NCBI GenBank assembly: GCA_036517115.1
Contig: DATDYB010000010.1
Location: 1 to 57,701, forward strand
Direction: 5' to 3'
Source: Minisyncoccota bacterium
GTDB taxonomy: Bacteria; Patescibacteriota; Minisyncoccia; Phycocordibacterales; PALSA-1337
Length of the DNA: 57,701 nucleotides
Below, piece by piece: positions 471 through 28,706 of this stretch. The notes beneath the pieces are model-generated. The model was not told the DNA's origin. It did no database searches and was given only the letters and a program-made list of their open reading frames with translations. Position 1 is the stretch's first letter; the number at the start of each line of letters is the position of its first letter. Both the position numbers and the translations under genes were made by a program.

Positions 471-494
471 ATCTACAACAGGAGTTCTTTTACA

Positions 495-940: not shown

Positions 941-990
941 CGTGTGCCGTATCACACGCAGTCACAACGGTTGATCATACGGGATCAACC

Positions 991-1050
991 ACTGCTCTCC
1001 GGATGAAGTCCGGACTGACGAGTCCTTACGCAGATTCAGGACGAAAGCAG
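991..1050 (+). ncRNA. type III hammerhead ribozyme (HHR-A)
   Basis: Stem III 5' strand ACUGCU 991-996, cleavage-site C997. Stem I is UCCGGA/UCCGGA (998-1003/1009-1014, loop UGAAG). Core CUGACGA 1015-1021; stem II GUCC/GGAC (1022-1025/1039-1042); GAA 1043-1045; stem III 3' strand AGCAG 1046-1050. All invariant core positions are present. Confidence 0.8.
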
Positions 1051-1107
1051 AGTTTTGGAGGTTTCACCTCCAAAAAACTAGGTTCTTTAAAATTCAAAGT
1101 GTTCATT

Positions 1108-3916: not shown

Positions 3917-3951
3917 ATGACTTACAGTTTGAGGGTCTGACCAAAACCCTC

Positions 3952-4033
3952 TCTGTCTCGAGATGTGTATCTCGACTGATGATTCCAGTCTTCGCTAAAG
4001 CTACGGCTTGGCAAGGCAAAAGGATGAAACAGA
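3952..4033 (+). ncRNA. type III hammerhead ribozyme (HHR-B) with enlarged stem II
   Basis: Stem III UCUGU 3952-3956 / ACAGA 4029-4033, cleavage-site C3957 (GUC). Stem I is UCGAGAU/AUCUCGA (3958-3964/3969-3975). Core CUGAUGA 3976-3982. Stem II is UUCC...GGAU (3983-3986/4022-4025) with a ~35-nt insert. GAA 4026-4028. Positions 10.1/11.1 form a U-U pair. Confidence 0.7.
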
Positions 4034-4112
4034 AGTTCTATGACACAACAACAAAAAGAAAGGTAATGCTATAAACATCAATTCATTAACTAACCTGTTA
4101 GAAGAAAATGGC

Positions 4113-4622
4113 GTGTCCACCAAAACATGGGGGACTGGAAAAGCGAAAACAATCCACCACCTACTCTCCGAAATTCAAGAGGGTGAAACTGTTCTGGAAG
4201 AGACGGAAAAAGGACTGGTCCGGAAAACCTCATTCCTCACCATCCATGTTTTATACAAGGATGAACGGGGAACGTTCAAACTCTTCGAGGAAAAACAAGT
4301 GTTCACGGACGGTAGAACACGAACACGAGATCAATCATGGAGCGTGGCAGAGAAGATGAAGGCCACCGACGTGAATATCCAGGCAGCCGCATTAAGAGCC
4401 CTTGAAGAAGAGTTAGGAATTATGACAGGAGTGAAATTTTTGGGTGAGATAACAACCACCGACGAACTCCGAGAATCACCATCATATCCCGGACTCACCG
4501 CGCAGTTCAAGATGTTCAACCTTACGGTGCACATCGACTATCATGAGTATCGGCCTGATGGTTACACGGAAGTACAGGAAGATAAATCAACGTACTTCAA
4601 ATGGAAGCATGTGGAACCTTAA
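4113..4622 (+). CDS. NUDIX-family hydrolase-like protein
   Basis: Partial Nudix box ...AALRALEEELGI... in a 169-aa protein. Start is GTG4113. Confidence 0.6.
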   Translation: MSTKTWGTGKAKTIHHLLSEIQEGETVLEETEKGLVRKTSFLTIHVLYKDERGTFKLFEEKQVFTDGRTRTRDQSWSVAEKMKATDVNIQAAALRALEEELGIMTGVKFLGEITTTDELRESPSYPGLTAQFKMFNLTVHIDYHEYRPDGYTEVQEDKSTYFKWKHVEP

Positions 4623-4667
4623 TCTGTTCCCATCGCTAAAAGGTTTGCTCGTTCCCTCAAAACGAGC

Positions 4668-4718
4668 TCTGTATCGAGATGCAGGTCTCGACTGATGATT
4701 CCAAAAGGATGAAACAGA
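4668..4718 (+). ncRNA. type III hammerhead ribozyme (HHR-C), minimal
   Basis: Stem III UCUGU 4668-4672 / ACAGA 4714-4718, cleavage-site A4673 (GUA). Stem I is UCGAGAU/GUCUCGA (4674-4680/4685-4691). Core CUGAUGA 4692-4698. Stem II is UUCC-AAAA-GGAU 4699-4710. GAA 4711-4713. Confidence 0.75.
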
Positions 4719-4781
4719 AATACTTTTTACACAACAAACAAACCCGACATCAAATAGATATCATCCACAACAAAGATTGCT

Positions 4782-5180
4782 ATGAAATACACTGATTACG
4801 ATCTCCGATTATGTGCAGGTGAAGAGTGGCTTCCCTCTAGTGAAGATACGCGTATGAGTTGGCGCAAGGCGATGGAGAAAACGTTACAAGATCCGAACCT
4901 ACGACTACCCCATTACTCTGATTTAATCCACGCTGAAGAAATGGCTCGGAAAAAACCGGAACTTCGTGAAAAATTTGGTGAATTGCAGAAAGGTTGGCCA
5001 TACTGGAGCGCCAACTCTGAAAATCATGATCCAAATTCAATGTATGCCTGCATTGTGACAGAGGATCATCTGCATTATAAATCACATACTCAAAAATACC
5101 TGGGGTACATGGTGAGATTCATTCGACAAACGAATCCAAAGAGCGTGGATAAATCACACAATAACGTAACAGAAGTATAA
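4782..5180 (+). CDS. DUF1566 (Lcl C-terminal)-like protein
   Basis: The pattern ...LRLPHYSDL...YWSANS...MYACIV...GYMVRFIRQ matches the remembered WRLP...YWSS...VR.VR signature. Confidence 0.5.
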   Translation: MKYTDYDLRLCAGEEWLPSSEDTRMSWRKAMEKTLQDPNLRLPHYSDLIHAEEMARKKPELREKFGELQKGWPYWSANSENHDPNSMYACIVTEDHLHYKSHTQKYLGYMVRFIRQTNPKSVDKSHNNVTEV

Positions 5181-5250: not shown

Positions 5251-5658
5251 TTACAACAATTTCTTTTTTGCCAATTCTTCGGCGAGGAGTTGCGGCGAAA
5301 CGATCTTTACTCCATGAACGATCGTACCCCACAGTTTACCGAAATCTCTTTCATCGCCAGTGAGCAAATGGGTGGCCTGACCTGCGATCGCTCCGCCGAG
5401 GATGGGAATATCTTTCGAAGCGATCGTTATTTCAATAGTGGTGGTAAGCGATGAAACGATCTCACACTTTTTTACCAATGATTCTAAAGAGGGGACCGCT
5501 TTTGAGGCTTTCAAACGGAGGTTCCGATACGCCTCCTCTATCGCATATACATTAGTGAGACAAGTACCTTGATCCAAAAGAACACCTACGAACATCCGCA
5601 TTCTACTATGCGGCAAGGCGGCGCTAAAGAGAATGTTTGCGTCCAGAAATACCCTCAT
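5251..5658 (-). CDS. vapC: PIN-domain toxin (VapC-like)
   Basis: MRVFLDANILFSA... and ...LLTGDERDF carry the PIN acidic residues. It overlaps the upstream antitoxin ORF by 4 nt. Confidence 0.8.
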   Translation of the reverse strand: MRVFLDANILFSAALPHSRMRMFVGVLLDQGTCLTNVYAIEEAYRNLRLKASKAVPSLESLVKKCEIVSSLTTTIEITIASKDIPILGGAIAGQATHLLTGDERDFGKLWGTIVHGVKIVSPQLLAEELAKKKLL

Positions 5659-7917: not shown

Positions 7918-8514
7918 ATGTCAGTCATTAAACACAAGGAACAAAGAGTTGGTATTTTTATCGATGCGCAAAATTTGTATCATAGCGCCAAAAATTTATA
8001 TGGCGCACGGGTTAATTTCGGCCAAATCGTTAAAGACGCAGTAGCGGGCAGAGCGCTTATCCGCGCCGTTGCCTACGTCATCACCACCGAATCAGGCGAC
8101 GAAAAAGCCTTTTTCGAAGCACTCGGAAAAATGGGTATTGAGACTAAGACAAAAGATTTACAAATCTTCTCAAGCGGCAGTAAAAAAGCCGACTGGGACG
8201 TCGGTCTCGCCGTAGACGCCATCAAGATGGCTCCGAAGCTCGATACGGTCATCATCGTATCAGGGGACGGCGATTTCATTCCCCTCGTCGAATATCTAAA
8301 AATAAATGAGGGATGTCAGGTAGAGGCTATCGCCTTTGGAAAATCAGCATCAGGCAAGCTCAAAGAAGCGGCCGATGACTTCATCGACCTCGACCACAAC
8401 CCACGTAAATATCTTCTAGGCCATTTTGGTGGAGGGAGAAAACCTCGACACCACGCTTCGGAGCGAAGACAGGCGACTCAAGAAAAAGTTGCTGAGGTTA
8501 CGGAGGTGGAATAG
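7918..8514 (+). CDS. NYN (LabA/DUF88) domain protein
   Basis: RVGIFIDAQNLYHSA...DWDVGLAVDAI...VIIVSGDGDFIPLV are NYN/PIN-like motifs. Confidence 0.85.
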   Translation: MSVIKHKEQRVGIFIDAQNLYHSAKNLYGARVNFGQIVKDAVAGRALIRAVAYVITTESGDEKAFFEALGKMGIETKTKDLQIFSSGSKKADWDVGLAVDAIKMAPKLDTVIIVSGDGDFIPLVEYLKINEGCQVEAIAFGKSASGKLKEAADDFIDLDHNPRKYLLGHFGGGRKPRHHASERRQATQEKVAEVTEVE

Positions 8515-8560
8515 AGAATGTAAAAACTGTCCTACATCCGCAACGCGGATCGGACGAACA

Positions 8561-8590
8561 AAACCACTGGCTCTCGCCAGTGGTTTTGTT
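8561..8590 (+). terminator. rho-independent terminator
   Basis: AAACCACTGGC-TCTC-GCCAGTGGTTT followed by TGTTG. Confidence 0.7.
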
Positions 8591-8610
8591 GTAGTCAGCG
8601 TTTTTTTACA

Positions 8611-8636
8611 AGAAAAAACCACCTGTAAACAGGTGG
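8611..8636 (-). terminator. rho-independent terminator of the convergent gene
   Basis: On the minus strand, CCACCTG-TTTA-CAGGTGG followed by TTTTTTC. Confidence 0.7.
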
Positions 8637-8661
8637 CTGGAATTGGAAAGAGAACTTAGAA

Positions 8662-9063
8662 CTAAGGTTGCTCTCTCCATGCGTGATACGGGATAAAACC
8701 TGGATTACGCTCCATGAGCTTCACCAAGTCGATGCAATCCAGTGCGCGAGGATGATCGTCGACCCTCCCATGCACACATGGCGGTGGCGGTGCGGTAGTC
8801 ATGTGATGGACCCGTTCTTCAAGCAATATCTCTGTTTGCAGCTTCCGGTAAAGCTCTAGAGATTTGCTTGCTCTCCGCTCACGTTCCAACTCTTCGGGAG
8901 AGAGCGGGATGGGTTTGGTGGAATGGGCTCGGAGCGTATTCAGTACGGGGGGCACATACGGGAGGGTCACCCCCGCTTTAACCCTCCGCACGAACGTCGC
9001 GGCTTGTTGTGGGTTATCCCAACAATATGGCGGGAGAACGATGTCGTCGAGTATGAGTGGCAT
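8662..9063 (-). CDS. hypothetical protein (133 aa)
   Basis: Intact ORF with its own terminator. No family recognised. Confidence 0.55.
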   Translation of the reverse strand: MPLILDDIVLPPYCWDNPQQAATFVRRVKAGVTLPYVPPVLNTLRAHSTKPIPLSPEELERERRASKSLELYRKLQTEILLEERVHHMTTAPPPPCVHGRVDDHPRALDCIDLVKLMERNPGFIPYHAWREQP

Positions 9064-9499: not shown

Positions 9500-11368
9500 A
9501 TGCTAAAAAAAGAATACTCAATTGAGATCGGCGGGAAAATGTTGACAGCGGAATTTAATAACTTAGCGGAACGCGCACACGGATCGGTACTTGTGAAATA
9601 TGGCAACACCACGATCCTCGCTACTGCCGTGATGTCGACAAAGTCCAAGGAAAGTGGAGATTTTTTCCCGCTCACCGTTGACTTCGAGGAAAAATTTTAT
9701 GCAACAGGAAGAATCCTAGGTTCCCGCTTCGTACGAAGGGAGGGGAAGCCGTCCGACGAAGCGGTGCTTTCCGGCCGTATCGTCGACCGAACCATTCGCC
9801 CGCTCTTTGACCAGTGGATCCGACACGAGACGCAAGTCATCATCACCGTGCTCTCAATTGATGAAGAGGATCCTGATGTGCTGGGGGTTATCGGCGCTTC
9901 GCTCGCTCTCGGCGTGTCCAACATTCCCTGGAATGGACCGGTTGGAGCAATCCGTATTGGAAAAATAAAAGGGCAGAATGATTTTATCTTAAATCCCACC
10001 TACGCGTGGCGAGATACTCCCGATCTGGAATTTGAACTCGTAGCCTGCGGTCAACACGGGACTATCAACATGGTTGAACTCGGAGGCAACGAGACGGTTG
10101 AATCGACGGTCAGCAAAGCTCTTGTGCTCGCAGCAGAGGAAATTTCAAAGCTTCAAAAATTCCAGGAGACTATTATTAAGGAGATCGGCGTTCCTAAACG
10201 CTCTATACCACAACAAGTCATATCAAAAGAAGCAACAACACTTTTTGAAAAAGAAATCGCACCAAAAATGGATGAATACGTTTTCACCGGTATTCCAGGC
10301 GACTCAAAGATTTACGAGCTTAAAGATTTGTGGCTTGCGGTGTTCGAAAAAGCTTTGCCGGAAGAACACCGAGCGCTCGCGGAAAACTTTTTTGAAGAAA
10401 AAGTAAACGCTCTTATTCACCACGAAGCGGTTCTCTCGGGCAGACGTCCCGATGGCCGCGGCACCGACGACATCCGTCCGCTCTATGCGCAGGCCGGCGG
10501 CGTTTCCTCAATCCTTCACGGTTCAGGTATTTTCTTCCGTGGACAAACTCACATCCTCTCCGTCCTTACACTTGGTGGACCGCAGGATGTACAGCTTATC
10601 GAAGGAGTGGGGGAGGAAGAAAAGAAACGTTTCATGCACCATTACAACTTTCCTCCCTTTTCAACCGGAGAAACAGGGAGAACAGGGGCGAATCGTCGCA
10701 TGATCGGCCACGGCGCACTGGCAGAAAAAGCGCTTGCCCCTATGATCCCTTCACAGGAAACTTTCCCATACACTATCCGACTTGTTTCGGAGGCGCTGTC
10801 CTCCAACGGATCGACTTCTATGGCCTCCATTTGTGGCGGCACTTTGGCACTTATGGACGGTGGTGTACCGATCAAAAAACCTGTGGCAGGAATTTCTTCC
10901 GGTGTAATGATCGTTGACGAAAAAAATTACAAGGTACTTACCGACATTCAAGGACCAGAAGATCATTTTGGTGATATGGACTTCAAAGTAGCTGGAACAC
11001 GTGACGGTATCACCGCCATCCAAATGGATGTAAAAGTGAAGGGTATCCCTGTTTCGATTCTTACAGAAGCATTTGGGAAAGCGAAGATTGCTCGTCTCGC
11101 CATTCTTGATGTTATCGAATCAGCGATTAAAGAACCACGGAAAAGTCTCTCTTCTCATGCACCAAAAATCATCAGCATGACCGTCAAACAGGATCATATC
11201 GGACTCGTTATCGGACCAGGAGGGAAAACGATTAAAACCATCATTGAAAAAACAGCCGTTCTAGGCATCGACATTAACGACAATGGCATCATCCTCATCA
11301 CCGGCAAGAACGGTAGTGCAGAGAAGGCAGAAGCCATTATCAAGACTATGGTAGGGAACAGAGACTGA
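9500..11368 (+). CDS. pnp: polyribonucleotide nucleotidyltransferase (PNPase), ends after the KH domain
   Basis: Two RNase PH-like domains (GRILGSRF.., RRPDGR, HHYNFPPFSTGE, GHGALAE, NGSTSMA) and a KH domain (IGLVIGPGGKTIKTI). No S1 domain precedes the stop. Confidence 0.93.
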   Translation: MLKKEYSIEIGGKMLTAEFNNLAERAHGSVLVKYGNTTILATAVMSTKSKESGDFFPLTVDFEEKFYATGRILGSRFVRREGKPSDEAVLSGRIVDRTIRPLFDQWIRHETQVIITVLSIDEEDPDVLGVIGASLALGVSNIPWNGPVGAIRIGKIKGQNDFILNPTYAWRDTPDLEFELVACGQHGTINMVELGGNETVESTVSKALVLAAEEISKLQKFQETIIKEIGVPKRSIPQQVISKEATTLFEKEIAPKMDEYVFTGIPGDSKIYELKDLWLAVFEKALPEEHRALAENFFEEKVNALIHHEAVLSGRRPDGRGTDDIRPLYAQAGGVSSILHGSGIFFRGQTHILSVLTLGGPQDVQLIEGVGEEEKKRFMHHYNFPPFSTGETGRTGANRRMIGHGALAEKALAPMIPSQETFPYTIRLVSEALSSNGSTSMASICGGTLALMDGGVPIKKPVAGISSGVMIVDEKNYKVLTDIQGPEDHFGDMDFKVAGTRDGITAIQMDVKVKGIPVSILTEAFGKAKIARLAILDVIESAIKEPRKSLSSHAPKIISMTVKQDHIGLVIGPGGKTIKTIIEKTAVLGIDINDNGIILITGKNGSAEKAEAIIKTMVGNRD

Positions 11369-19994: not shown

Positions 19995-20978
19995 TTGGCT
20001 AGAATCAGCGCAAAAAGAGTTGCCATCATCGCAACCTCAATTATCGTACTTGGAGGTATTTTTATGCTGGCAACATATCAAAAACCTGCCGATAAAGTAC
20101 TTTCCTTCACCCAAACAACTCAAAGTGAGACTGAAAAGGCGTTCAAAACGCTCACAGAGAAAGATGCTGACGGTGATACCCTCAAAGATTGGGAGGAAGC
20201 GCTCTGGAAAACAGACATCAACGACCCTGACACCGACAAGGACGGTGCGCCTGACGGGGAAGAGGTAACTCTCGGGAGAAATCCAACCGTTAAAGGCCCG
20301 AACGATAAGCTCCTCGATCACCCCCTCGGAAGCACCACAATATTTAAAAATGATGTGAGCCTTAGCGCCACCGACCGATTCGCTCGCGACGTATTCACTC
20401 GTTACATGTCCCTTAAACAAGCCGGGGTGCCTGTGGGAACCGACGAGCAGGTCAACATTGCCAATTCGATCGCGGAGGAATACGACAGCTCGATCGAATT
20501 CAAGCGCTACAAAACCACGGATATTAAAATCGGAGTGAGTGATACTGCAGAAACGATCAAACAGTATGGAAATATTTTGGGTCACATCATCACCACCTAT
20601 GCGGTGAGCTCCCGAAACGAGGGAATCATCCTTAAAGATGCTTTAGAAAATGATAACCCTGATACTTTAAAGGAGCTTGATCCCATCATCAAGGGATACG
20701 AACAATATCTCAGTCAATTCCTGCTCGTGCAGGTACCTCCTTCTGCTTTGTCGTTGCACCTGAAACTTCTGAACACCCTGAGTGAGCTCATTGGTACGGT
20801 GAAGGGTATGAAGCTCGTCTTCACCGATTCATTGCAGTCTCTTATCAGTCTCAAGGGTTATCAGGGCATAGCCCTTAATCTCTATAACGATCTCTTGGAT
20901 CTGCAGAAATATTTTCTTAGTAAAAAAATCGACTACGTGATGGGTGAAGCGGGGTATGTGTTTATGCGACAACAATGA
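19995..20978 (+). CDS. membrane-anchored protein with thrombospondin-type-3-like Asp-rich repeats
   Basis: N-terminal TM (VAIIATSIIVLGGIFMLA) and DADGDTLKDWEE..DINDPDTDKDGAPDGEE. TTG start from the track, so the start is uncertain. First gene of the T4SS-like operon. Confidence 0.6.
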   Translation: MARISAKRVAIIATSIIVLGGIFMLATYQKPADKVLSFTQTTQSETEKAFKTLTEKDADGDTLKDWEEALWKTDINDPDTDKDGAPDGEEVTLGRNPTVKGPNDKLLDHPLGSTTIFKNDVSLSATDRFARDVFTRYMSLKQAGVPVGTDEQVNIANSIAEEYDSSIEFKRYKTTDIKIGVSDTAETIKQYGNILGHIITTYAVSSRNEGIILKDALENDNPDTLKELDPIIKGYEQYLSQFLLVQVPPSALSLHLKLLNTLSELIGTVKGMKLVFTDSLQSLISLKGYQGIALNLYNDLLDLQKYFLSKKIDYVMGEAGYVFMRQQ

Positions 20979-22600
20979 AACATTATTACTACAAAAAAGT
21001 AATAGCATTATTTTTGGTACTCTCTTTTATCTTACCTTCAGTCGCAATGTTACGTACTCAAAAAGCTGAGGCAATATTCGGGGTGGGAGATGTCGTCTTC
21101 GACATAACCAACACCTTTCAGAACGCCATGACCGCCGTAAGCACTGCGGCATCAAGCATTTCAGCTTATTTCTTACAATACAAAGAAGGGGTGCTTGATC
21201 CAATAGCTTACTTCATCGCCAAAGCAATCATTCGTCAGCTCACTGCAAGTATTGTGGACTGGATCAACTCAGGTTTTGAAGGCAACCCATCCTTCATTTC
21301 CGACCCAGGCGGTTTCTTTGTCGACCTCGCAGATCAGGAAATCGGGCGCTTTATCGAGGGAAATTCGGATTTGAATTTTCTTTGCCAGCCATTCAGTATC
21401 GACATCCGACTTGCTCTAGCGCTTCGGTATTCACCGTTCAAGCGAAAAATTACCTGTACACTCTCAGGTGCCTTTAAAAATGCGAAAGGGGCAGTGGATG
21501 GATTTACTGGTGGGAATTTCGCACAAGGCGGATGGCAGGGGTGGATCTCACTTACCGAAGAGCCGCAGAATAACTACATCGGAGCATACATTGAGTCTAG
21601 GAATGAGCTCGAGGTGCGCATTGGCAACAAGCAGCTGACGAAAACCAAAGAAGCGTCCTGGAACAACGGCTTCCTTTCTTGGGAAAAGTGCAGTGGCAAA
21701 GATACTCAAGCCGCCCAAGTATTGCGAGATGATATCAAACGCTACAACGACGGTACGAGCCAATACGAACACGAGCTTATCGTTGCTAAAGACGAACTTA
21801 AAAAAGTTGAGAAATCTGGTTGCGAGACACAGACTCCCGGCAAGGTCATCTCGGACGGACTTTCAAACACTCTCGGCAGCCCTTTGCGCCAGCTTGAGCT
21901 CGCCGACGAGTTTAACGAAATCATCAACGCGCTCCTCGTGCAGATGTTGAAACAAGTGCTTGGACCAGGAGATGGACTCCGGGGCACCAGTGGCAAAGGC
22001 GCAGGAGACACGAGCTCAATTCTTTATCGTCTTGAAAACGAGAAGACGGCGGAAGAAACAGCGGCGCTCGAGAAAATAAAGATTGAGGCACTCAAGGGTA
22101 TTGTTAAGTCGATTGATGAGGAAACGAGGTACAAAACTAATCTAGACAACACACTAAACACATTTATTGGATCTAAAACCCTGCTTGAGTCCGTCAAAGC
22201 TTGCTACCAGACGAAACTTACCCGACCAACAACCACCCTCACGGTAAACCAAATTTCATTTGCCAACGGCCGCATCGCTGATACGGATCGGGTCATTGCT
22301 GAAAAAATCACCCCTCGAGCATCACCACTTCTTGGTAGAATCGAAGCGCTGCAAAGCCTCTTGGTCACACTAATAACGATTGAGACCAACGTTAAGACTG
22401 GAACAACCGTAAACGAAGTGGTGGTGGACGGTACCAGCGCTTACGAAAAGTTAATCTCTGAGAAGAAACTCCACACCATTGTTGAAATCGAAACGGCCGG
22501 TGCTGAAAAAGACGACATCGTGAAAGAGATGGATAAACTTAACAATGAGACCAATCTCAAAATGAAGGAATGTCAACTCTTTCCAGCAAACGGCGTATAA
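20975..22600 (+). CDS. large exported hypothetical protein of the T4SS-like operon
   Basis: N-terminal TM/signal (VIALFLVLSFILPSVAML). ATGA overlap with the preceding gene. Confidence 0.7.
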   Translation: MKHYYYKKVIALFLVLSFILPSVAMLRTQKAEAIFGVGDVVFDITNTFQNAMTAVSTAASSISAYFLQYKEGVLDPIAYFIAKAIIRQLTASIVDWINSGFEGNPSFISDPGGFFVDLADQEIGRFIEGNSDLNFLCQPFSIDIRLALALRYSPFKRKITCTLSGAFKNAKGAVDGFTGGNFAQGGWQGWISLTEEPQNNYIGAYIESRNELEVRIGNKQLTKTKEASWNNGFLSWEKCSGKDTQAAQVLRDDIKRYNDGTSQYEHELIVAKDELKKVEKSGCETQTPGKVISDGLSNTLGSPLRQLELADEFNEIINALLVQMLKQVLGPGDGLRGTSGKGAGDTSSILYRLENEKTAEETAALEKIKIEALKGIVKSIDEETRYKTNLDNTLNTFIGSKTLLESVKACYQTKLTRPTTTLTVNQISFANGRIADTDRVIAEKITPRASPLLGRIEALQSLLVTLITIETNVKTGTTVNEVVVDGTSAYEKLISEKKLHTIVEIETAGAEKDDIVKEMDKLNNETNLKMKECQLFPANGV

Positions 22601-22602
22601 CC

Positions 22603-24531
22603 ATGAAAAAAATCATCCCTGGCATTATCATAGTGATCCTCCTCCTTACACTCTCGTACGGATGCTTTGGTACGCACGCGGCTGATGCACAAGTTATCGG
22701 CTGGTTCGAGAACAAAGCTATTGAGGGCATCGGCACCTGGGCGGGTAACACCGTACTTGGACTTATGAGCAAGGCGATATTCCTTACCGGCATGCTCCTG
22801 AACGCCTCGATCGCCCAGACGATGAATATCTCCGGGCTGGTCGCCAGCATCCCGTCGATCGAGCTCGCATGGAGAACCATACGCGACGTGGCCAGCATGT
22901 TCTTCATCTTCATTCTTCTCTACGCCGCCATCTGTAATATCCTCGACGTGGGCCACATCAAAAAGAACATTTTACCGGCCATCATCATCGCAGGACTTCT
23001 GATGAACTTCAGCATGTTCTTCACCAAAGTCATTATCGACGCTTCCAATGTTGTATCACTTGGATTCTACAAAGCGATTATCGCACCAGGCATTGAGGCT
23101 GCGAACAATAATAAAGACACATCGACGATCAAGGGAAGTATCACCGCCCTAAGCCTTATGGACGGCGGCCTTTCCCAGATCTTTATGCAGGCGCTCCGGA
23201 TTCAAACCGTGTTTGATCCGAAAACAGGAGAAGGCGGGGCCGACCTCGGAGGCGATCAATACAACAAGCTCACCCCGAAAAACGTTATCGCGAGCACGGT
23301 GATGGGCTCGATCGTGATGCTCATGGCTGCCTTTGTCTTCCTGGCCGCAGCATGCATGTTCGTCGTACGCACAGTGGTGCTCGTCCTCCTTATCACCCTT
23401 TCACCGCTCGCGTTTCTCGGCAACGTCCTGCCGCAAACAGGGGGCTTTTCGAGCAAATGGTGGAGCACGCTTACCGACCAAGCTATCTTCGCGCCCGCCT
23501 ATCTCATGCTCACCTACATAGCCATGAAAGTGGTGACCGACCCGGCGTTTAACAGAGCGATTAATGGCAACAGCGCTGACGCCACCTTTGCCAACGCATT
23601 CATGGGCGCCGGTCATGTAGGCGTCATCCTCAATTACGCCATTGTTATCGCCCTCCTCTTTGCCACTACCATTATTTCAAAACAATTTTCAGGGGATGCT
23701 GGCAAGTACGGTCTCAAAGCAGCTGAAATGGCGAAGGGCTGGACGACCAATAAACTTAAGGCTGCGGGAGCGGGAGCGTGGAAAAACACAGGTGGTCAAA
23801 TTGCTAGTAGAGTAGCGTCGAGCGAATGGTTAAAAGATAGAGCAGCTCTCAACCCTATTCTTGGAGGCGCTGCGTTGAAGGCAATGCGTGGGGTTGCAGG
23901 AGGCTATGATGAGCGTGTAAAAGATAAAGCAAAGAAACAAGAACAATTTGCTCAATCTCTCGGATATGATCGACCTCGTGTTCAAGCAATGGAGGCTCAA
24001 CTCAGAACAATGCGACAAAATCAGGCAGCCCATCGGGCTGCAGGCAACACGGCGTTGGCAAATATTATGAATGCCCCAATAGCTACCCTGGAAAGGCAGA
24101 TGGAATCAACAAAGAGGGTGCGCCAAGATACATACGCTCAAGGAATTACTCCGTACCAAACAACAACATTATGGTCAAGCGTTGGTAGAGGTAACCAAAT
24201 TGCATCTGCAAAAATTGAGATTGAATCAGTTAAAGATCAGTTGAGAATGGAAACCGCCGATCTTAACGACGCCCGAAGCAGAGTGCAGAATGGAAACAAC
24301 ACCATTCGCTCAACTAACGACGCGATAACAAAACTTCAAAATATTATAAGTACCCAAGGTGGAGGTGCGACAGCTGTCCAGGCTACCACATTAACGAACC
24401 TTCAAACACGGTTAGCACAAGAACAAACCAGGTTAAATACGGCTCAGGCTGACGAAGTTACACACCTCACCAATGTTAATAATTATCAACAACGAGTAAC
24501 ACAGTTGGAGAACACGGCTCATCCATATTAA
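22603..24531 (+). CDS. polytopic membrane protein, VirB6/TrbL-like, with Q/N/T-rich coiled-coil tail
   Basis: At least seven hydrophobic helices followed by a ~200-aa low-complexity C-terminus. Its position next to PrgI/VirB4 genes supports the call. ATG22603 follows the upstream stop by 2 nt. Confidence 0.6.
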   Translation: MKKIIPGIIIVILLLTLSYGCFGTHAADAQVIGWFENKAIEGIGTWAGNTVLGLMSKAIFLTGMLLNASIAQTMNISGLVASIPSIELAWRTIRDVASMFFIFILLYAAICNILDVGHIKKNILPAIIIAGLLMNFSMFFTKVIIDASNVVSLGFYKAIIAPGIEAANNNKDTSTIKGSITALSLMDGGLSQIFMQALRIQTVFDPKTGEGGADLGGDQYNKLTPKNVIASTVMGSIVMLMAAFVFLAAACMFVVRTVVLVLLITLSPLAFLGNVLPQTGGFSSKWWSTLTDQAIFAPAYLMLTYIAMKVVTDPAFNRAINGNSADATFANAFMGAGHVGVILNYAIVIALLFATTIISKQFSGDAGKYGLKAAEMAKGWTTNKLKAAGAGAWKNTGGQIASRVASSEWLKDRAALNPILGGAALKAMRGVAGGYDERVKDKAKKQEQFAQSLGYDRPRVQAMEAQLRTMRQNQAAHRAAGNTALANIMNAPIATLERQMESTKRVRQDTYAQGITPYQTTTLWSSVGRGNQIASAKIEIESVKDQLRMETADLNDARSRVQNGNNTIRSTNDAITKLQNIISTQGGGATAVQATTLTNLQTRLAQEQTRLNTAQADEVTHLTNVNNYQQRVTQLENTAHPY

Positions 24532-24538
24532 TACTTAT

Positions 24539-25243
24539 ATGAATCCTGACCAAAAAACCCTGGAAGAAAAATTTAAAAAGAGTCCTTTTGACACTCAAAA
24601 AGTGCTCACCTCATTAGAGGTGGCGAATAAAGTAGCGAAGATTGGAGAAGATAATGGACTAATGCTGGATAAACAATCGGATTTATTTGATGAGATTTCA
24701 TTTGTTTTACTCGGCTTAACTCACCCCAATGAGTTCATTCCACACCTAAGAAAACGACTGGGTGTTTCAGACGATGTGGTGAATAAAATTGCTGACGAAA
24801 TCAATGAACAAGTCTTCAAAGAAATCCGTGAATCGCTCAAGAAAATTCACGATAATCCTTCCTCTCTCGAGTCACATCAAGAAGCGACACCCCAAAGCAG
24901 GGAAGAGATACTGAGTGACATTGAGAATCCTGTTCCTTCGAGTGAACATAGCCGGGAAGAAACCACAAATCCACTACCGCAAGAAAATGTGCCGGTGCAA
25001 CCAACTACTCCAATGAAGGGTCCTAGAATTGAAAAACTCATTCCTGTTACCAAGGTATTCGAAGAGGACAAACCAACAACGAGCGTCCCAACCGAAACAA
25101 CCCCAGCTCCGGCAGAATTAAGTATTGCCGATGCGAAACTGAACAACCCGGTCGGCGCGCCGCGGGTGGTTGAGATACGAAAAATCCAAAACAAAGAAGA
25201 AAAGAGAGAATACAAAGCAGATCCTTATCGAGAGTCTGTGTAA
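24539..25243 (+). CDS. hypothetical protein with Pro/Thr-rich C-terminal half
   Basis: Intact ORF inside the operon. No family recognised. Confidence 0.6.
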   Translation: MNPDQKTLEEKFKKSPFDTQKVLTSLEVANKVAKIGEDNGLMLDKQSDLFDEISFVLLGLTHPNEFIPHLRKRLGVSDDVVNKIADEINEQVFKEIRESLKKIHDNPSSLESHQEATPQSREEILSDIENPVPSSEHSREETTNPLPQENVPVQPTTPMKGPRIEKLIPVTKVFEEDKPTTSVPTETTPAPAELSIADAKLNNPVGAPRVVEIRKIQNKEEKREYKADPYRESV

Positions 25244-25267
25244 CAGAGTGATATACTTTTAGAAATC

Positions 25268-25702
25268 ATGAAATTCCAGGTACCACAATTTATCGAGGTT
25301 GAAGACAAGATCTTTGGACCGCTGACCCTGAAGCAGTTCATTTACCTGGCTGGTGCAGCGGGATTCTCTTTTATCATCTATAAAATCGCACCATTCTTTA
25401 TTGGGGTAGTGCTTGTTGTGCCCATCCTGCTCTTCGGGGTAGCGCTTGCCTTTTACAAAATAAACAACAAGCCGTTTATTTTCGTAGTTGAGGCTGCCGT
25501 CAAATATTTCTTCAGTGCTAAATTGTACATTTGGAGAAAAGAGAACCGCCAAATTACACCCACTACGGGAGCGGAAGGGGAGAAAGAGTCGATGCTCTAC
25601 TTACCGAAACTCTCTAATAGTAAGCTCCGTGACCTTACCTGGAGCCTGGATATTAAAGAGGGCGTGAATCCTGGCACGGCAGAAATGAAAAATCGAGTAT
25701 AA
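25268..25702 (+). CDS. PrgI-family (VirB3-like) small membrane protein
   Basis: MKFQVPQFIEVEDKIFGPLTLKQFIYL followed by two TM helices, the signature N-terminus of PrgI-family proteins. Confidence 0.75.
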   Translation: MKFQVPQFIEVEDKIFGPLTLKQFIYLAGAAGFSFIIYKIAPFFIGVVLVVPILLFGVALAFYKINNKPFIFVVEAAVKYFFSAKLYIWRKENRQITPTTGAEGEKESMLYLPKLSNSKLRDLTWSLDIKEGVNPGTAEMKNRV

Positions 25703-25710
25703 TTACAATC

Positions 25711-26358
25711 ATGGCGATCACACCTACCAACAAAACTACTCAGGACTTTGTTCCCATAAAAGAAATCCGCGACGGCGTGGTTATTCTTAAAGACGGATCG
25801 ATGCGCTCGATCATTTTGGCATCATCACTCAACTTTGCCCTTAAGTCGCAAGATGAACAAACGTCAATCATTCTCCAGTTCCAGAATTTTCTTAACTCTC
25901 TCGATTTCAGCGTACAAATCTTCATCCAATCAAAAAAGCTCGATATTCGGCCATACATAGCCATTCTCGAAGACCGCTATAAGGAACAAGTAGGGGAGCT
26001 CATGAAAATCCAGACCCGGGAATACATCGAATTCATCAAGACCTTCACTGAAAACTCCAATATCATGTCAAAGAGTTTCTTTGTGGTTATACCTTTCACC
26101 CCTTCAGTGATCCAGGGTAAAGGAGACTTAGTAGGGAAAGTGTTTGGGAAGAAAACCGACAAAAAGAAAGAAGCTGAAGTGAAAATAGAAGACTTCGAGG
26201 AAAACAAAAGCCAACTAGAGCAGCGTATGTCGGTAGTTGAGCAGGGACTGGTGCGTTGCGGTATCAGAGTGGCGCAGCTTGGAACAGAAGAGATTGTGGA
26301 GTTATTCTATAAAATCTTCAATCCGGGAGATTTGGAGAAACCGATGCAGGTTAATTAA
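25711..26358 (+). CDS. VirB4 N-terminal-domain-like protein (no ATPase domain)
   Basis: TTQDFVPIKEIRDGVVILKDGSMRSIILASSLNFALKSQDEQ... resembles the N-domain of Gram-positive-type VirB4/TraE proteins. 215 aa. Confidence 0.5.
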   Translation: MAITPTNKTTQDFVPIKEIRDGVVILKDGSMRSIILASSLNFALKSQDEQTSIILQFQNFLNSLDFSVQIFIQSKKLDIRPYIAILEDRYKEQVGELMKIQTREYIEFIKTFTENSNIMSKSFFVVIPFTPSVIQGKGDLVGKVFGKKTDKKKEAEVKIEDFEENKSQLEQRMSVVEQGLVRCGIRVAQLGTEEIVELFYKIFNPGDLEKPMQVN

Positions 26359-26365
26359 TTATCAT

Positions 26366-28174
26366 ATGAGTATTTTTGGAAAATTATTTGGCAAAGGCGA
26401 AAAGCAGCCCGAAATAACCTCAATTTTGCCACAGGAGATTTATGAAGCGGGTATTCTTGAGCTCAAAGATGTTATCGCACCTTCTGCATTAAAAGTATCA
26501 CCACGGGAGCTCAACTTGGGAGAGAAGATCGCCCGAACCTTTTTTGTCATTTCATATCCACGCTATCTGTCAGAGAGCTGGTTCGCACCCATCATCAACC
26601 TCGACAAGGTATTTAATATTTCTATCTTCGTCCACCCTGTCGAGACGGCGAAAATACTCCGTCATTTTCAAAAAAAGGTGGCCGAGGTACAAAGCCAGAT
26701 CAACATCAGGGAGGAGAAGGGCCTGGTGCGGGACCCTATGCTTGATACTGCCTACCAAGACCTCGAAAGCTTGCGCGACAATCTCATGCAAGCCCAGGAA
26801 AAAATCTTCGATGTGGGAGTATACATCACTATTTATGGCGATAACGACAGCGAGCTTGATAAAATCGAGTCTGAAATTAAATCCATCCTTGAATCAAAAT
26901 TAGTGTACCTAAAGCCGGCCCTGTTTCAACAGGAGCAAGGCTATCGTAGCGCGCTACCTATTGCTTCCGATGAACTGGGGGTGCACTCAAAGCTTAATTC
27001 ATCACCACTATCAAGCCTTTTTCCGTTCGTATCGTTTGACCTTACCTCGGACAAAGGAATTCTCTACGGCATCAACCGGCACAATTCAAGTCTCGTACTC
27101 TTTGACCGATTTTTGCTCGAAAACTACAATTCAGTGACGTTTGCTAAAGCTGGATCAGGAAAATCATACGCCACCAAGCTCGAAATTCTCCGCACGCTCA
27201 TGTTCGATACAGAAGTGATCGTTATCGACCCGGAACGTGAGTATGAGTACATGGCTGAAGCAACAGGAGGCAAGTATTTCAATATTTCCCTTAACTCTGA
27301 ACACCACATCAACCCCTTCGACCTCCCAACTCCACGGGAAGGTGAGTCTGGCTCGGATATTCTCCGATCAAACATCATTAACCTCGTGGGTCTTTTCCGC
27401 ATCATGCTCGGAGGGCTCACCCAGGAAGAAGACGCGATCATCGACCGTGCTATTACCGAAACATACGCACTCAAAGACATCACTCCCGATTCCGATTTCA
27501 CCACCGCCGAGCCACCGCTCATGTCCGACTTTGAGCTGGTGCTTGCCGGCATGGAAGGAGGGGAGTCACTTGTACAGCGTCTTACTAAATACACTAAAGG
27601 AACATGGGCTGGGTTCATTAACCGACCTACCAATGTAGACATCAACAAAAAGTTCGTGGTATTTTCGCTTCGAGATATGGAAGATGAGCTGAAACCAGTC
27701 GCTATGTACATCGTCACCCACTACATATGGAACGCAATCCGAAAAAACCTAAAGAAACGACTTCTTGTTATCGATGAGGCGTGGTGGATGATGAAGTCTG
27801 AAGACACCGCTTCATTCCTCTTAGGGTTGGCGAAACGAGGCCGAAAATATTATTTGGGACTGGCGACCATTACCCAGGACGTTGACGATTTCCTTAAATC
27901 TCCTTACGGATTGCCGATTATCACCAACTCATCGATCCAGGTGCTTCTTAAACAATCCCCGTCGTCAATCGACATTATTCAAAAAACCTTCAACCTCACC
28001 GATGAAGAAAAATATCTGCTCCTTGAGTCAGACATCGGAGAGGGAATATTCTTCGTGGGCATGAAGCACGTGGCCATCAAAATCATTGCTTCATACACCG
28101 AAGATCAGATTATTACCACCAATCCATCTCAAATTTTGGAAATTAAGAAAGCCAAGCAGGAACTTGCAGGCTAA
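26366..28174 (+). CDS. virB4: VirB4/TraC-family T4SS ATPase
   Basis: Own N-domain (ILELKDVIAPSALKVSPRELNLGEKIARTFFVISYPRYL), Walker A AKAGSGKSYATK, Walker B LLVIDEAWWMM, and ITQDVDDF. ATG26366. Confidence 0.88.
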   Translation: MSIFGKLFGKGEKQPEITSILPQEIYEAGILELKDVIAPSALKVSPRELNLGEKIARTFFVISYPRYLSESWFAPIINLDKVFNISIFVHPVETAKILRHFQKKVAEVQSQINIREEKGLVRDPMLDTAYQDLESLRDNLMQAQEKIFDVGVYITIYGDNDSELDKIESEIKSILESKLVYLKPALFQQEQGYRSALPIASDELGVHSKLNSSPLSSLFPFVSFDLTSDKGILYGINRHNSSLVLFDRFLLENYNSVTFAKAGSGKSYATKLEILRTLMFDTEVIVIDPEREYEYMAEATGGKYFNISLNSEHHINPFDLPTPREGESGSDILRSNIINLVGLFRIMLGGLTQEEDAIIDRAITETYALKDITPDSDFTTAEPPLMSDFELVLAGMEGGESLVQRLTKYTKGTWAGFINRPTNVDINKKFVVFSLRDMEDELKPVAMYIVTHYIWNAIRKNLKKRLLVIDEAWWMMKSEDTASFLLGLAKRGRKYYLGLATITQDVDDFLKSPYGLPIITNSSIQVLLKQSPSSIDIIQKTFNLTDEEKYLLLESDIGEGIFFVGMKHVAIKIIASYTEDQIITTNPSQILEIKKAKQELAG

Positions 28175-28180
28175 ATTATT

Positions 28181-28591
28181 ATGAAAATGGGCAAAACGGA
28201 ATGGCACTTTCTTATCGGTGCGGCGGTCACGGTGGACCTCATGCAAGCTATGCTTGATTTCTTCGGCATTGGCCTCGTCATTAATCGTTTTATTGATATT
28301 GTTGTAGGCATGGCGTTACCCTTCTACCTTTCCATCCGCGGAGTAAAAATGACCGGTAGGCGTGTCGGAAGCATCATCGGCGCCTTTATTCTAGAGGAAA
28401 TACCTGGCATCGATGCATTACCTTTGTGGACAGCCGACGTACTATATATATACGCCACAGTTAGAGCGGAAGAAAAGGGAGAAGAAGTCAAAAAAGCAAC
28501 TTTAGACAAAATCAAATCGATCAAAAAACCGAATTTTGATCACAAAAGAGAGGATAACACCCTCAATCTTAGAGAGTCGGAAGTGGAGTAG
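28181..28591 (+). CDS. small three-TM membrane protein
   Basis: Hydrophobic helices and operon context. Confidence 0.6.
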   Translation: MKMGKTEWHFLIGAAVTVDLMQAMLDFFGIGLVINRFIDIVVGMALPFYLSIRGVKMTGRRVGSIIGAFILEEIPGIDALPLWTADVLYIYATVRAEEKGEEVKKATLDKIKSIKKPNFDHKREDNTLNLRESEVE

Positions 28592-28595
28592 TAAA

Positions 28596-28706
28596 AGCGC
28601 TCCGCAATCGGGCAAAAAAGAGACCGGATAATTTTTCTGGTGAAAAATTTCCTAGGACTCCGCGCCGCCGCGCTACGTAGTCTCTTTTTTGCCCGATTGC
28701 TGCGCT
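28596..28706. repeat. long hairpin (27-29-bp imperfect arms) enclosing a motif shared with the tRNA-Lys locus
   Basis: Arms AGCGCTCCGCAATCGGGCAAAAAAGAGAC (28596-28624) / GTCTCTTTTTTGCCCGATTGCTGCGCT (28680-28706). The loop motif GGATAATTTTTCTGGTGAAAAATTTCC..CCGCGCCGCCGCGCT recurs at 52529-52580. Confidence 0.75.

Follow-up and report, generated by a model that had tools for sequence, protein, structure and literature searches.

A type III hammerhead ribozyme followed by a BoxA-like sequence between two genes of a patescibacterial operon

We found a type III hammerhead ribozyme, named HHR-A, at positions 992-1050 (+ strand) of contig DATDYB010000010.1, a 57,701-nucleotide (nt) stretch from a Minisyncoccota bacterium (assembly GCA_036517115.1) that was analyzed as a whole and is called the window here. 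HHR-A lies between the gene of a conserved 101-amino acid (aa) protein (635-940, +) and that of a 209-aa receiver-domain-like protein (1187-1816, +). The assignment draws on the sequence itself, the Rfam family RF00008, a covariance model of related hammerheads (R1) and covariation among orthologues. HHR-A is almost certainly a genuine hammerhead maintained by selection, and judging from its sequence it very probably cleaves itself. That it processes the RNA between two cistrons of an operon in a Patescibacteria (Candidatus Taylorbacteria-like) chromosome is, taken as a whole, a reasonably probable reading.

The hammerhead HHR-A and its conservation

A canonical type III hammerhead had been called at this place in an earlier reading of the DNA (the sequence-only reading), and sequence, topology and comparative evidence all agree with that call. 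The core is intact, with CUGACGA at 1015-1021 and G12-A13-A14 at 1043-1045, and all core elements of RF00008 are present: C3-U4-G5-A6-N7-G8-A9, G12-A13-A14, the A15.1-U16.1 pair (1046 with 996) and a non-G at position 17. The topology is that of type III, with stem I of 6 bp plus loop, stem II of 5 bp plus loop, and an open stem III of 5 bp. Stem I is a closed hairpin (998-1014) in which UCCGGA (998-1003) pairs with UCCGGA (1009-1014) across the loop UGAAG. The stem II hairpin (1022-1042) joins GUCC(U) at 1022-1026 to (A)GGAC at 1038-1042 and contains the expected G10.1-C11.1 pair. Stem III is open as had been described (CUGCU 992-996 with AGCAG 1046-1050), but the sixth pair once given to it does not exist, because A991 stands opposite A1051. 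C17 is position 997, and the predicted scissile bond is 997/998.

The surroundings of HHR-A were also largely as reported earlier. It is placed between the 101-aa gene and the receiver-like gene, and the hairpin GGUUGAUC-AUACGG-GAUCAACC at 969-990 adjoins its 5' side. The statement that no open reading frame (ORF) covers the region holds for conserved ORFs, but two mechanical ORFs, 669-974 in another frame and 1003-1113, do overlap it. Four features had not been described before: a third hammerhead in the window, the conservation of the flanking hairpin, a BoxA-like box, and a lineage-specific insertion at 1053-1077. Loop 2 of HHR-A is enlarged to about 11-13 nt; across the hammerhead family the loop types are conserved as UGNGUA (loop 1) and GAAA or AAAA (loop 2). 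Within HHR-A the UGAA at 1004-1007 is complementary to the UUCA at 1035-1038, which might allow a tertiary contact of loop I with loop II of the kind that rapid cleavage in low Mg2+ depends on.

Related loci (designated L005, L012 and so on) were obtained via exact-protein contig look-ups. In all nine lineages with the receiver gene next after the ~101-105-aa gene, a type III hammerhead occurs in the intergenic region, and the nine HHR-A copies were compared (window, L012, L005, L014, L015, L019, L022, L024, and L082). The MAFFT alignment was out of register for orthologues with stem II insertions, and pairs were counted by explicit parsing. All 135 of 135 stem cells (15 pairs) are paired with no stem mismatch, and five of the 15 pairs show compensatory double changes. 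In stem III, pair 4 goes from C-G to U-A; in stem I, pair 3 goes from C-G to G-C or U-A and pair 4 from G-C to A-U; in stem II, pair 2 goes from U-A to C-G and pair 4 from C-G to G-C. C17 is unchanged throughout, and the core varies at the free position N7 alone (C or U).

The three stems of HHR-A were predicted independently by RNAalifold from an alignment of the whole intergenic regions (eight orthologous regions). The same run predicted three further hairpins on the + strand, and compensatory changes were found at 19 of the 58 predicted pairs. Hairpin H0 (941-958; CGUGUG-CCGUAU-CACACG) begins directly 3' of the 101-aa gene, the stop codon of which ends 1 nt before it, and five of its six pairs show compensatory changes. 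H1 (969-990), the 8-bp hairpin adjoining stem III, is present with covariation in all nine orthologues (versions GGUUGAUC, GGUCGAUU, and GCAUCGAUU). H3 (1108-1168) is a long hairpin of ~24 bp with multiple compensatory pairs in the 5' leader of the receiver-like gene. A long-range pairing of the 5' half of H1 with the 3' half of H3 (GGUUGAU/AUCAACC) was rejected, the compensatory H1 change of L019 not being mirrored in H3.

The orthologues were grouped by synteny, a criterion free of structure-search bias. Since HHR-A is fixed at one orthologous junction and carries compensatory changes among proteins of 57-83% identity, we conclude that it is under purifying selection in place. In the wider hammerhead family (24 distinct sequences) 94.8% of the cells are paired, a percentage inflated by the structure-aware searches through which the members were gathered, and double changes occur at 14 of 16 pairs. 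None of 500 shuffles reached the observed family covariation score, and slid controls were far lower. All 29 family hammerhead hits in the window and its relatives are on the coding strand.

The hammerhead is absent in three relatives (L018, L081, and L006). There the receiver gene adjoins a divergent TrmB gene and must therefore have its own promoter, and the BoxA-like box is kept in its 5' untranslated region (UTR). Loss of the ribozyme at receiver genes with their own promoter fits a role specific to co-transcribed junctions. A protein-guided metagenome scan gave five loci: the two close ones (L007 and L008) begin at the gene, without upstream DNA, and the other three are ~30% identical.

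A covariance-model scan, which the sequence-only reading had suggested as a check, gave a divided result. RF00008 (Hammerhead_3) matched 990-1052 with 31.8 bits (E = 2.5e-5 for a 221-nt stretch and 0.0066 for the whole window, both strands), which is under the Rfam gathering score, but model R1, built from 16 related hammerheads with HHR-A left out, scored HHR-A at 50.9 bits (E ~4e-14). With filters off, R1 yielded only three members in the 57.7 kb, at 991-1051, 3951-4034, and 4667-4719. The best Rfam score in the family (47.4 bits) belongs to a paralogous copy, L005 1191-1244; direct orthologues of HHR-A score 28-36 bits. We also used a strict descriptor (at least 3 bp each in stems II and III, a stem I hairpin with 4 bp or more, the motifs YUGANGA and GAA, and non-G at 17), which found three sites in the window, all on the + strand. 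In 200 dinucleotide-preserving shuffles of the window the mean was 0.185 sites, and none of the 200 reached three.

It is hardly credible on these data that HHR-A is a chance or decayed motif without cleavage activity. The Rfam score under threshold, the enlarged loop 2 and a competing fold would be in line with such a motif, but the shuffle controls, the E-value of the family model, and the intact core and stems with covariation in nine lineages all speak for a functional ribozyme.

The BoxA-like box and the repeated cassettes

Downstream of HHR-A, the box GUUCUUUAAAA at 1082-1092 (+) is invariant across orthologues and matches GYTCTTTAANA perfectly, which is the BoxA consensus used for gamma-proteobacteria (PMC5725501). 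Besides this sequence (GTTCTTTAAAA), neither strand of the 57.7-kb window has a perfect match to the consensus, which is gamma-proteobacterial and may not be the host's. The E. coli rrn BoxA is UGCUCUUUA(ACAA) (PMC2724277). The rrn counterpart of GYTCTTTAANA is UGCUCUUUAACAA. In Gram-positive bacteria the rrn BoxA is UGUUCUUUGAAAA, closer still to the box. No rRNA genes were found in the window.

Between the ribozyme and the box, only the window and the L012 lineage carry an inserted hairpin, UUUUGGAGG-UUUCA-CCUCCAAAA (1053-1077, +). On the + strand its stem runs into AAAAAAC and not into a U-tract, so that it does not qualify as a terminator of that strand; the terminator scan listed it for the - strand only, and most orthologues lack it.

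HHR-A is one of three hammerheads located at 1-5 kb in the window, all on the + strand and between + strand genes, in one 5-kb island of small genes. The relatives have three to four hammerheads per locus. Several copies in one orientation flank genes of one transcription unit, as in clustered intercistronic hammerheads. The second cassette (3931-4044, +), identified by the descriptor scan, R1 (58.2 bits) and sequence, consists of a hairpin (3931-3951), a hammerhead (3952-4033) and a degenerate box, AGUUCUAUGAC. Its hammerhead has C17 at 3957 and U.U at 10.1/11.1, and Rfam missed it because 35 nt are inserted in its stem II. The third cassette (4647-4718, +) has a hairpin at 4647-4667 and a hammerhead, HHR-B, at 4668-4718 (Rfam 33.6 bits, R1 66.2 bits, sequence), with A17 at 4673 and again U.U at 10.1/11.1. 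Both of these hammerheads may cleave more slowly as a result of the U.U mismatch. A NUDIX-like gene (4113-4622) is flanked by the two.

The order of hairpin, cleavage or structured module, and box recurs before most small genes of the island. A hairpin of 6-10 bp adjoins the 5' side of stem III in nearly every hammerhead of the family, and the box G(U/C)UCUUU(G/A)A(A/U) begins 0-5 nt from the 3' side. The module directly upstream of the orthologous ~101-105-aa gene differs among relatives: twister-P1 in L012, a hammerhead in L024, and a long-hairpin module termed LH in L005, L015, and L082, each with a hairpin before and the box after it. L012, the closest relative with upstream DNA, has two twister-P1 motifs on the + strand, at 5303-5381 (59.3 bits, E ~1e-10 to 1e-12) and 4701-4811 (37.2 bits), against a gathering score of 67.2. 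The box comes after each of them; the stronger one also has an abutting hairpin before it and lies directly upstream of the 101-aa orthologue. At the equivalent position the window has a basic 47-aa ORF and no twister.

LH opens with a variable hairpin, Pa. A long hairpin comes next, its base conserved as CACUUUAUUGG...CCAYAGAGU and its distal part covarying, and the BoxA-like box follows it. No other cassette is as common in the island, and LH replaces hammerhead or twister before orthologous genes. We counted 31 copies on the + strand in relatives (e.g., L005:3852-3927, L015:5390-5465, and L022:2456-2531) and one in the window, and the family shows covariation. The window copy (197-275, +; covariance model R2, 51.1 bits, E ~1e-8) precedes the small-ORF trio, with Pa at 200-223, the long hairpin at ~224-268 and a degenerate box that starts as GUUCUCU at 269-275 and, in full (AGTTCTCTACA), runs on to 279. 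Neither the LH hairpin nor a second recurrent element, motif X, had an Rfam match, lax thresholds included. LH may be cut by RNase III, correspond to an rrn-type boxB, or be a processing element of a new kind.

Loop 2 of HHR-A (UACGCAGAUUCA) is similar to the 5' half of Pa, the variable LH hairpin (GCAGAUUUCC...), and the LH model aligns weakly over the 3' half of HHR-A plus the inserted hairpin (window 1027-1088; 16 bits, E ~0.5). The likeness may reflect a recombinant origin or coincidence.

Motif X reads UUGUUGUCACC-UUUCUAAAAG-CGUGAG and is followed by a hairpin with the loop UGYAG. It recurs upstream of cassettes in relatives (all +: L005:24-60 and 1750-1795; L012:4115-4160; L014:3743; L015:3592 and 4434; L022:2879; L024:1176 and 5564; L082:530) and is absent from the window; its stem covaries (CGCA/UGCG, CACA/UGUG, CGUG/CACG). 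Motif Y (...CCCGUAAU..hairpin..GCGCYU-N4-AGCGGAAACUGUU, then the abutting hairpin) precedes one subclass of hammerheads, at L005:60-150 and 2590-2680, L014:2300-2368, L015:3650-3721, L022:3740-3808, and L024:1680-1739. The motif Y copy at L005 ~2640 is followed by a box without a ribozyme, as if the ribozyme had been deleted.

We compared the frequency of the box next to these modules with that in random sequence. A BoxA match with at most two mismatches was present within 24 nt downstream of 19 of 27 hammerheads, 2 of 2 twisters and 25 of 30 LH copies; in random 24-nt windows the frequency was 2.2%. Box positions 1-7 are nearly invariant across the family. The box is also retained in relatives without a ribozyme, in the 5'UTR of the receiver gene.

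Two other identities of the box were rejected. No sigma-70 promoter is predicted there, and the copies allow no consistent placement of -10 or -35 elements; in L018 and L006 the box is located downstream of an extended -10, inside the 5'UTR. Integron attC sites have the pattern GTTRRRY, which the box does not fit, and no integron integrase is encoded nearby. Integrase-family genes are found near the island only in L012 and L018, with general phage-integrase domains.

Repetition of the cassettes raises the question of a selfish repeated or mobile element, or of hammerheads that flank segments excised into circular RNAs, in either case with no role in operon expression. Near-identical copies do occur within a genome (L005 155 is identical to L005 2919) and between genomes (L015 3722 is identical to L005 155), and gene content between cassettes varies among relatives. 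Circularization was raised by Perreault et al. for their hammerheads, but circles or spliced products were not detected (PMC3088659). We give this explanation a slight probability, as HHR-A is fixed in place with compensatory changes among proteins of 57-83% identity, the island is without phage or mobile-element proteins, and a scan of viral contigs for hammerhead plus box gave 56 pattern hits, about the chance number, and two weak model hits.

A proposed processing mechanism and its alternatives

What has been observed is the motif, conserved and covarying, the layout of the cassettes, and a box that agrees with the BoxA consensus; from these we infer in vivo self-cleavage, end protection, Nus binding, and re-loading in the following order. 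Polymerase would transcribe the small ORFs, the 101-aa gene and then the receiver-like gene as one unit. The terminator scan found none between the last two genes, no independent promoter of the receiver gene was detectable between the ribozyme and the gene, and an intrinsic-terminator-like hairpin plus T-run (1856-1883, +; terminator scan) lies at the end of the unit. HHR-A would fold and cut the nascent RNA after C997, parting the two cistrons. The upstream mRNA would then end in H0, H1, six nucleotides and a 2',3'-cyclic phosphate; H1 would become its 3'-terminal hairpin, probably giving a protected 3' end.

The downstream mRNA would carry a 5'-OH on the compact ribozyme fold, with the BoxA-like sequence (1082-1092) ~30 nt further on. 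The cut would sever the RNA tether to any upstream BoxA, and BoxA re-loading would be needed for that reason. The box may re-recruit NusB/S10 and other Nus factors to polymerase, and polymerase, now termination-resistant, would read on past H3, the structured leader, and into the receiver gene. The BoxA of the rrn spacer probably re-loads likewise after RNase III releases pre-16S. We propose such a cut-and-reload cassette, made up of a protective hairpin, an interchangeable cleavage module (hammerhead, twister, or LH) and a BoxA that re-recruits NusB/S10, as a tentative model only; it is clearly less probable than intercistronic processing as such.

A number of points weigh against intercistronic processing coupled to antitermination. 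The Rfam score of HHR-A (31.8 bits) is lower than the RF00008 gathering score of 48.5, a shortfall largely explained by the long loop 2. In silico, the hammerhead fold has -18.8 kcal/mol vs. -19.2 for the minimum free energy, and an alternative fold that has the enlarged loop 2 paired to the 5' strand of stem I is favored by 0.4 kcal/mol. The other two hammerheads of the window have U.U at 10.1/11.1 and weaker boxes. The BoxA assignment is based on likeness to the gamma-proteobacterial consensus, which may differ from the rRNA-operon BoxA of this lineage, and a nusB gene was not found in the window. A 5'-OH end can trigger RNase J1 decay in Firmicutes (the glmS precedent), and cleavage might destabilize the downstream cistron instead of insulating it. 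Finally, a BoxA near the start codon can repress instead of antiterminate, as in suhB (PMC5725501).

The last two points lead to an explanation of opposite sign, namely that cleavage down-regulates or uncouples the receiver gene. The 5'-OH end would expose its mRNA to RNase J-type decay, or a BoxA-Nus complex would repress its translation; in either case HHR-A would attenuate read-through instead of serving maturation. Decay after self-cleavage has a precedent in glmS, and the near-isoenergetic alternative fold could make cleavage of HHR-A conditional; repression has one in the suhB BoxA (PMC5725501). We nevertheless consider down-regulation distinctly improbable. No receiver-gene promoter is detectable between the ribozyme and the gene, and it would be strange for the sole transcript to be destroyed constitutively. 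The ribozyme is also conserved exactly at those junctions at which the receiver gene relies on read-through, and is missing from relatives in which that gene has a promoter to itself.

A second explanation accepts that the ribozyme cuts and holds that the box is not a Nus site. The cassette would then be a natural 'insulator' in which cleavage strips variable upstream RNA, and the U-rich leader would be a ribosome-loading or translation-enhancer element, or a binding site of an island regulator. In several cassettes the box does stand 3-25 nt ahead of a start codon, and the gap contains no Shine-Dalgarno sequence (window 483-494 with ATG at 495; L024 2363; L005 1914), and UUCUUU could pair with AAGGAA-type ribosome-binding sites. 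A candidate regulator is also at hand: a TrmB-like gene always adjoins the island, and a small helix-turn-helix (HTH) gene is found inside it in L015, L016, L022, and L023. On the other side, the invariant G(U/C)UCUUU plus (A/G)A(A) fits the BoxA consensus better than chance, and a box-to-start distance that ranges from 3 to >100 nt is unusual for a translation element. We therefore regard an insulator of this kind as rather unlikely, and intercistronic processing by HHR-A, with the box as a candidate BoxA, as the preferred reading.

Neighboring genes and relation to known systems

The 101-aa protein was identified from the ORF list and has eight orthologues with 57-76% identity; it has no match in Pfam or PHROG. 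The receiver-like protein gives a weak match to Pfam Response_reg. All of its 22 homologues are from assemblies of the candidate phyla radiation (CPR) type, an identical protein is present on 11 metagenome contigs, and the nearest named relative is in a Candidatus Taylorbacteria metagenome-assembled genome (63% identity). The very basic, conserved 47-aa ORF (MKPETQLKAMKSVRKHTIFVGKPHSSPKGERGYNRKREKQNWRKETV; 495-638, +) overlaps the 101-aa gene at ATGA and is also found in L014, L019, and L022; the box-like AGUUCUUUUACA stands directly before its AUG, without a Shine-Dalgarno sequence.

Downstream of the receiver gene, a 182-aa membrane protein (1962-2510, +) matches PADLOC PycTM, a Pycsar effector (E = 1e-7). 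Nearly every relative has a different gene here. In L019, a weak match to the AdoCbl riboswitch (7918-8084, +; 36.7 bits, gathering score 50) is located upstream of a 182-aa gene (8117-8665). A phage or defense-island origin was rejected: no island protein other than the PycTM-like one had a match in PHROGs or PADLOC.

Outside the island the window is ordinary chromosome, with genes for DnaA, PolA, PBP1A, TyrRS, RuvC, UvrD, PNPase (9500-11368), S15 and a cluster resembling a type IV secretion system (T4SS). This cluster (~20000-28600, +) includes a PrgI-family protein (25268-25702), a TraG/VirB4-like ATPase (26237-28174) and large proteins without Pfam matches, and it resembles a type IV secretion or conjugation-like system, here encoded by a CPR genome.

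HHR-A itself is of a known sort, being a canonical type III hammerhead in a known clustered, gene-flanking arrangement. With the type III hammerheads of viroids and satellites (RF00008 seed) it shares the core, the three-stem topology with open stem III, and C17; unlike them it is DNA-encoded in a bacterial operon, has no rolling-circle context and has an enlarged loop 2. Like synthetic ribozyme insulators of the RiboJ type, which combine a hammerhead with a hairpin, the cassette would remove variable upstream RNA and leave a standard leader for the downstream gene. It differs from them in being a natural element, the standard leader being the BoxA-like box and not a designed hairpin.

Clustered hammerheads were reported to flank genes and to cut polycistronic RNA in vitro (PMC3088659). 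The island resembles the clusters of Perreault et al. (2011) in that several coding-strand hammerheads lie between genes or short gene blocks of one unit, for which polycistronic processing was proposed (PMC3088659). In contrast to those clusters, it is on a CPR (Patescibacteria) chromosome, has no phage proteins, and contains type III copies exclusively, with an abutting 5' hairpin, a BoxA-like 3' box and one copy fixed at an orthologous junction in at least nine lineages.

Twister and hammerhead ribozymes share bacterial gene neighborhoods for an unknown reason (Roth et al., 2014, reviewed in PMC6765202). Similarly, twister-P1 and hammerhead are found here at equivalent positions in relatives, which argues that the activity matters and not the fold. 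Unlike in those neighborhoods, the swap takes place at one orthologous junction, a long hairpin outside Rfam is a third option, and all share a BoxA-like flank.

The comparison with antitermination sites concerns the box. As in rRNA operons and the lambda nut sites (boxB hairpin, boxA, and boxC; NusB/S10), G(U/C)UCUUUAA matches BoxA, and as in rrn the leader order is hairpin, then BoxA, with BoxA following an RNA processing site as in the 16S-23S spacer. The candidate boxes differ from rrn and lambda nut sites in that they occur in protein-coding operons, before almost every small gene, and are coupled to self-cleaving ribozymes.

In the searchable literature we found no earlier report of hammerheads from CPR, Patescibacteria or Parcubacteria, and no paper that links a natural ribozyme to boxA. 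The composite cassette and the ribozyme-BoxA coupling would be new, and they are as yet unproven. The role of many bacterial hammerhead and twister ribozymes is still an open question (PMC6765202), for which this locus is an unusually clean natural experiment: the ribozyme is fixed at one junction, and the genomes that have lost it are exactly those in which a separate promoter serves the downstream gene. At the neighboring junction the module varies by genome (hammerhead, twister, or hairpin), always with a hairpin on one side and a BoxA-like signal on the other. Should the BoxA link prove right, cleavage by the ribozyme would have a mechanistic tie to Nus-factor antitermination. If the cut-and-reload model is true, LH would be a new processing or self-cleaving element, and the model would supply the missing rationale for the long-noted gene neighborhoods of hammerheads and twisters.

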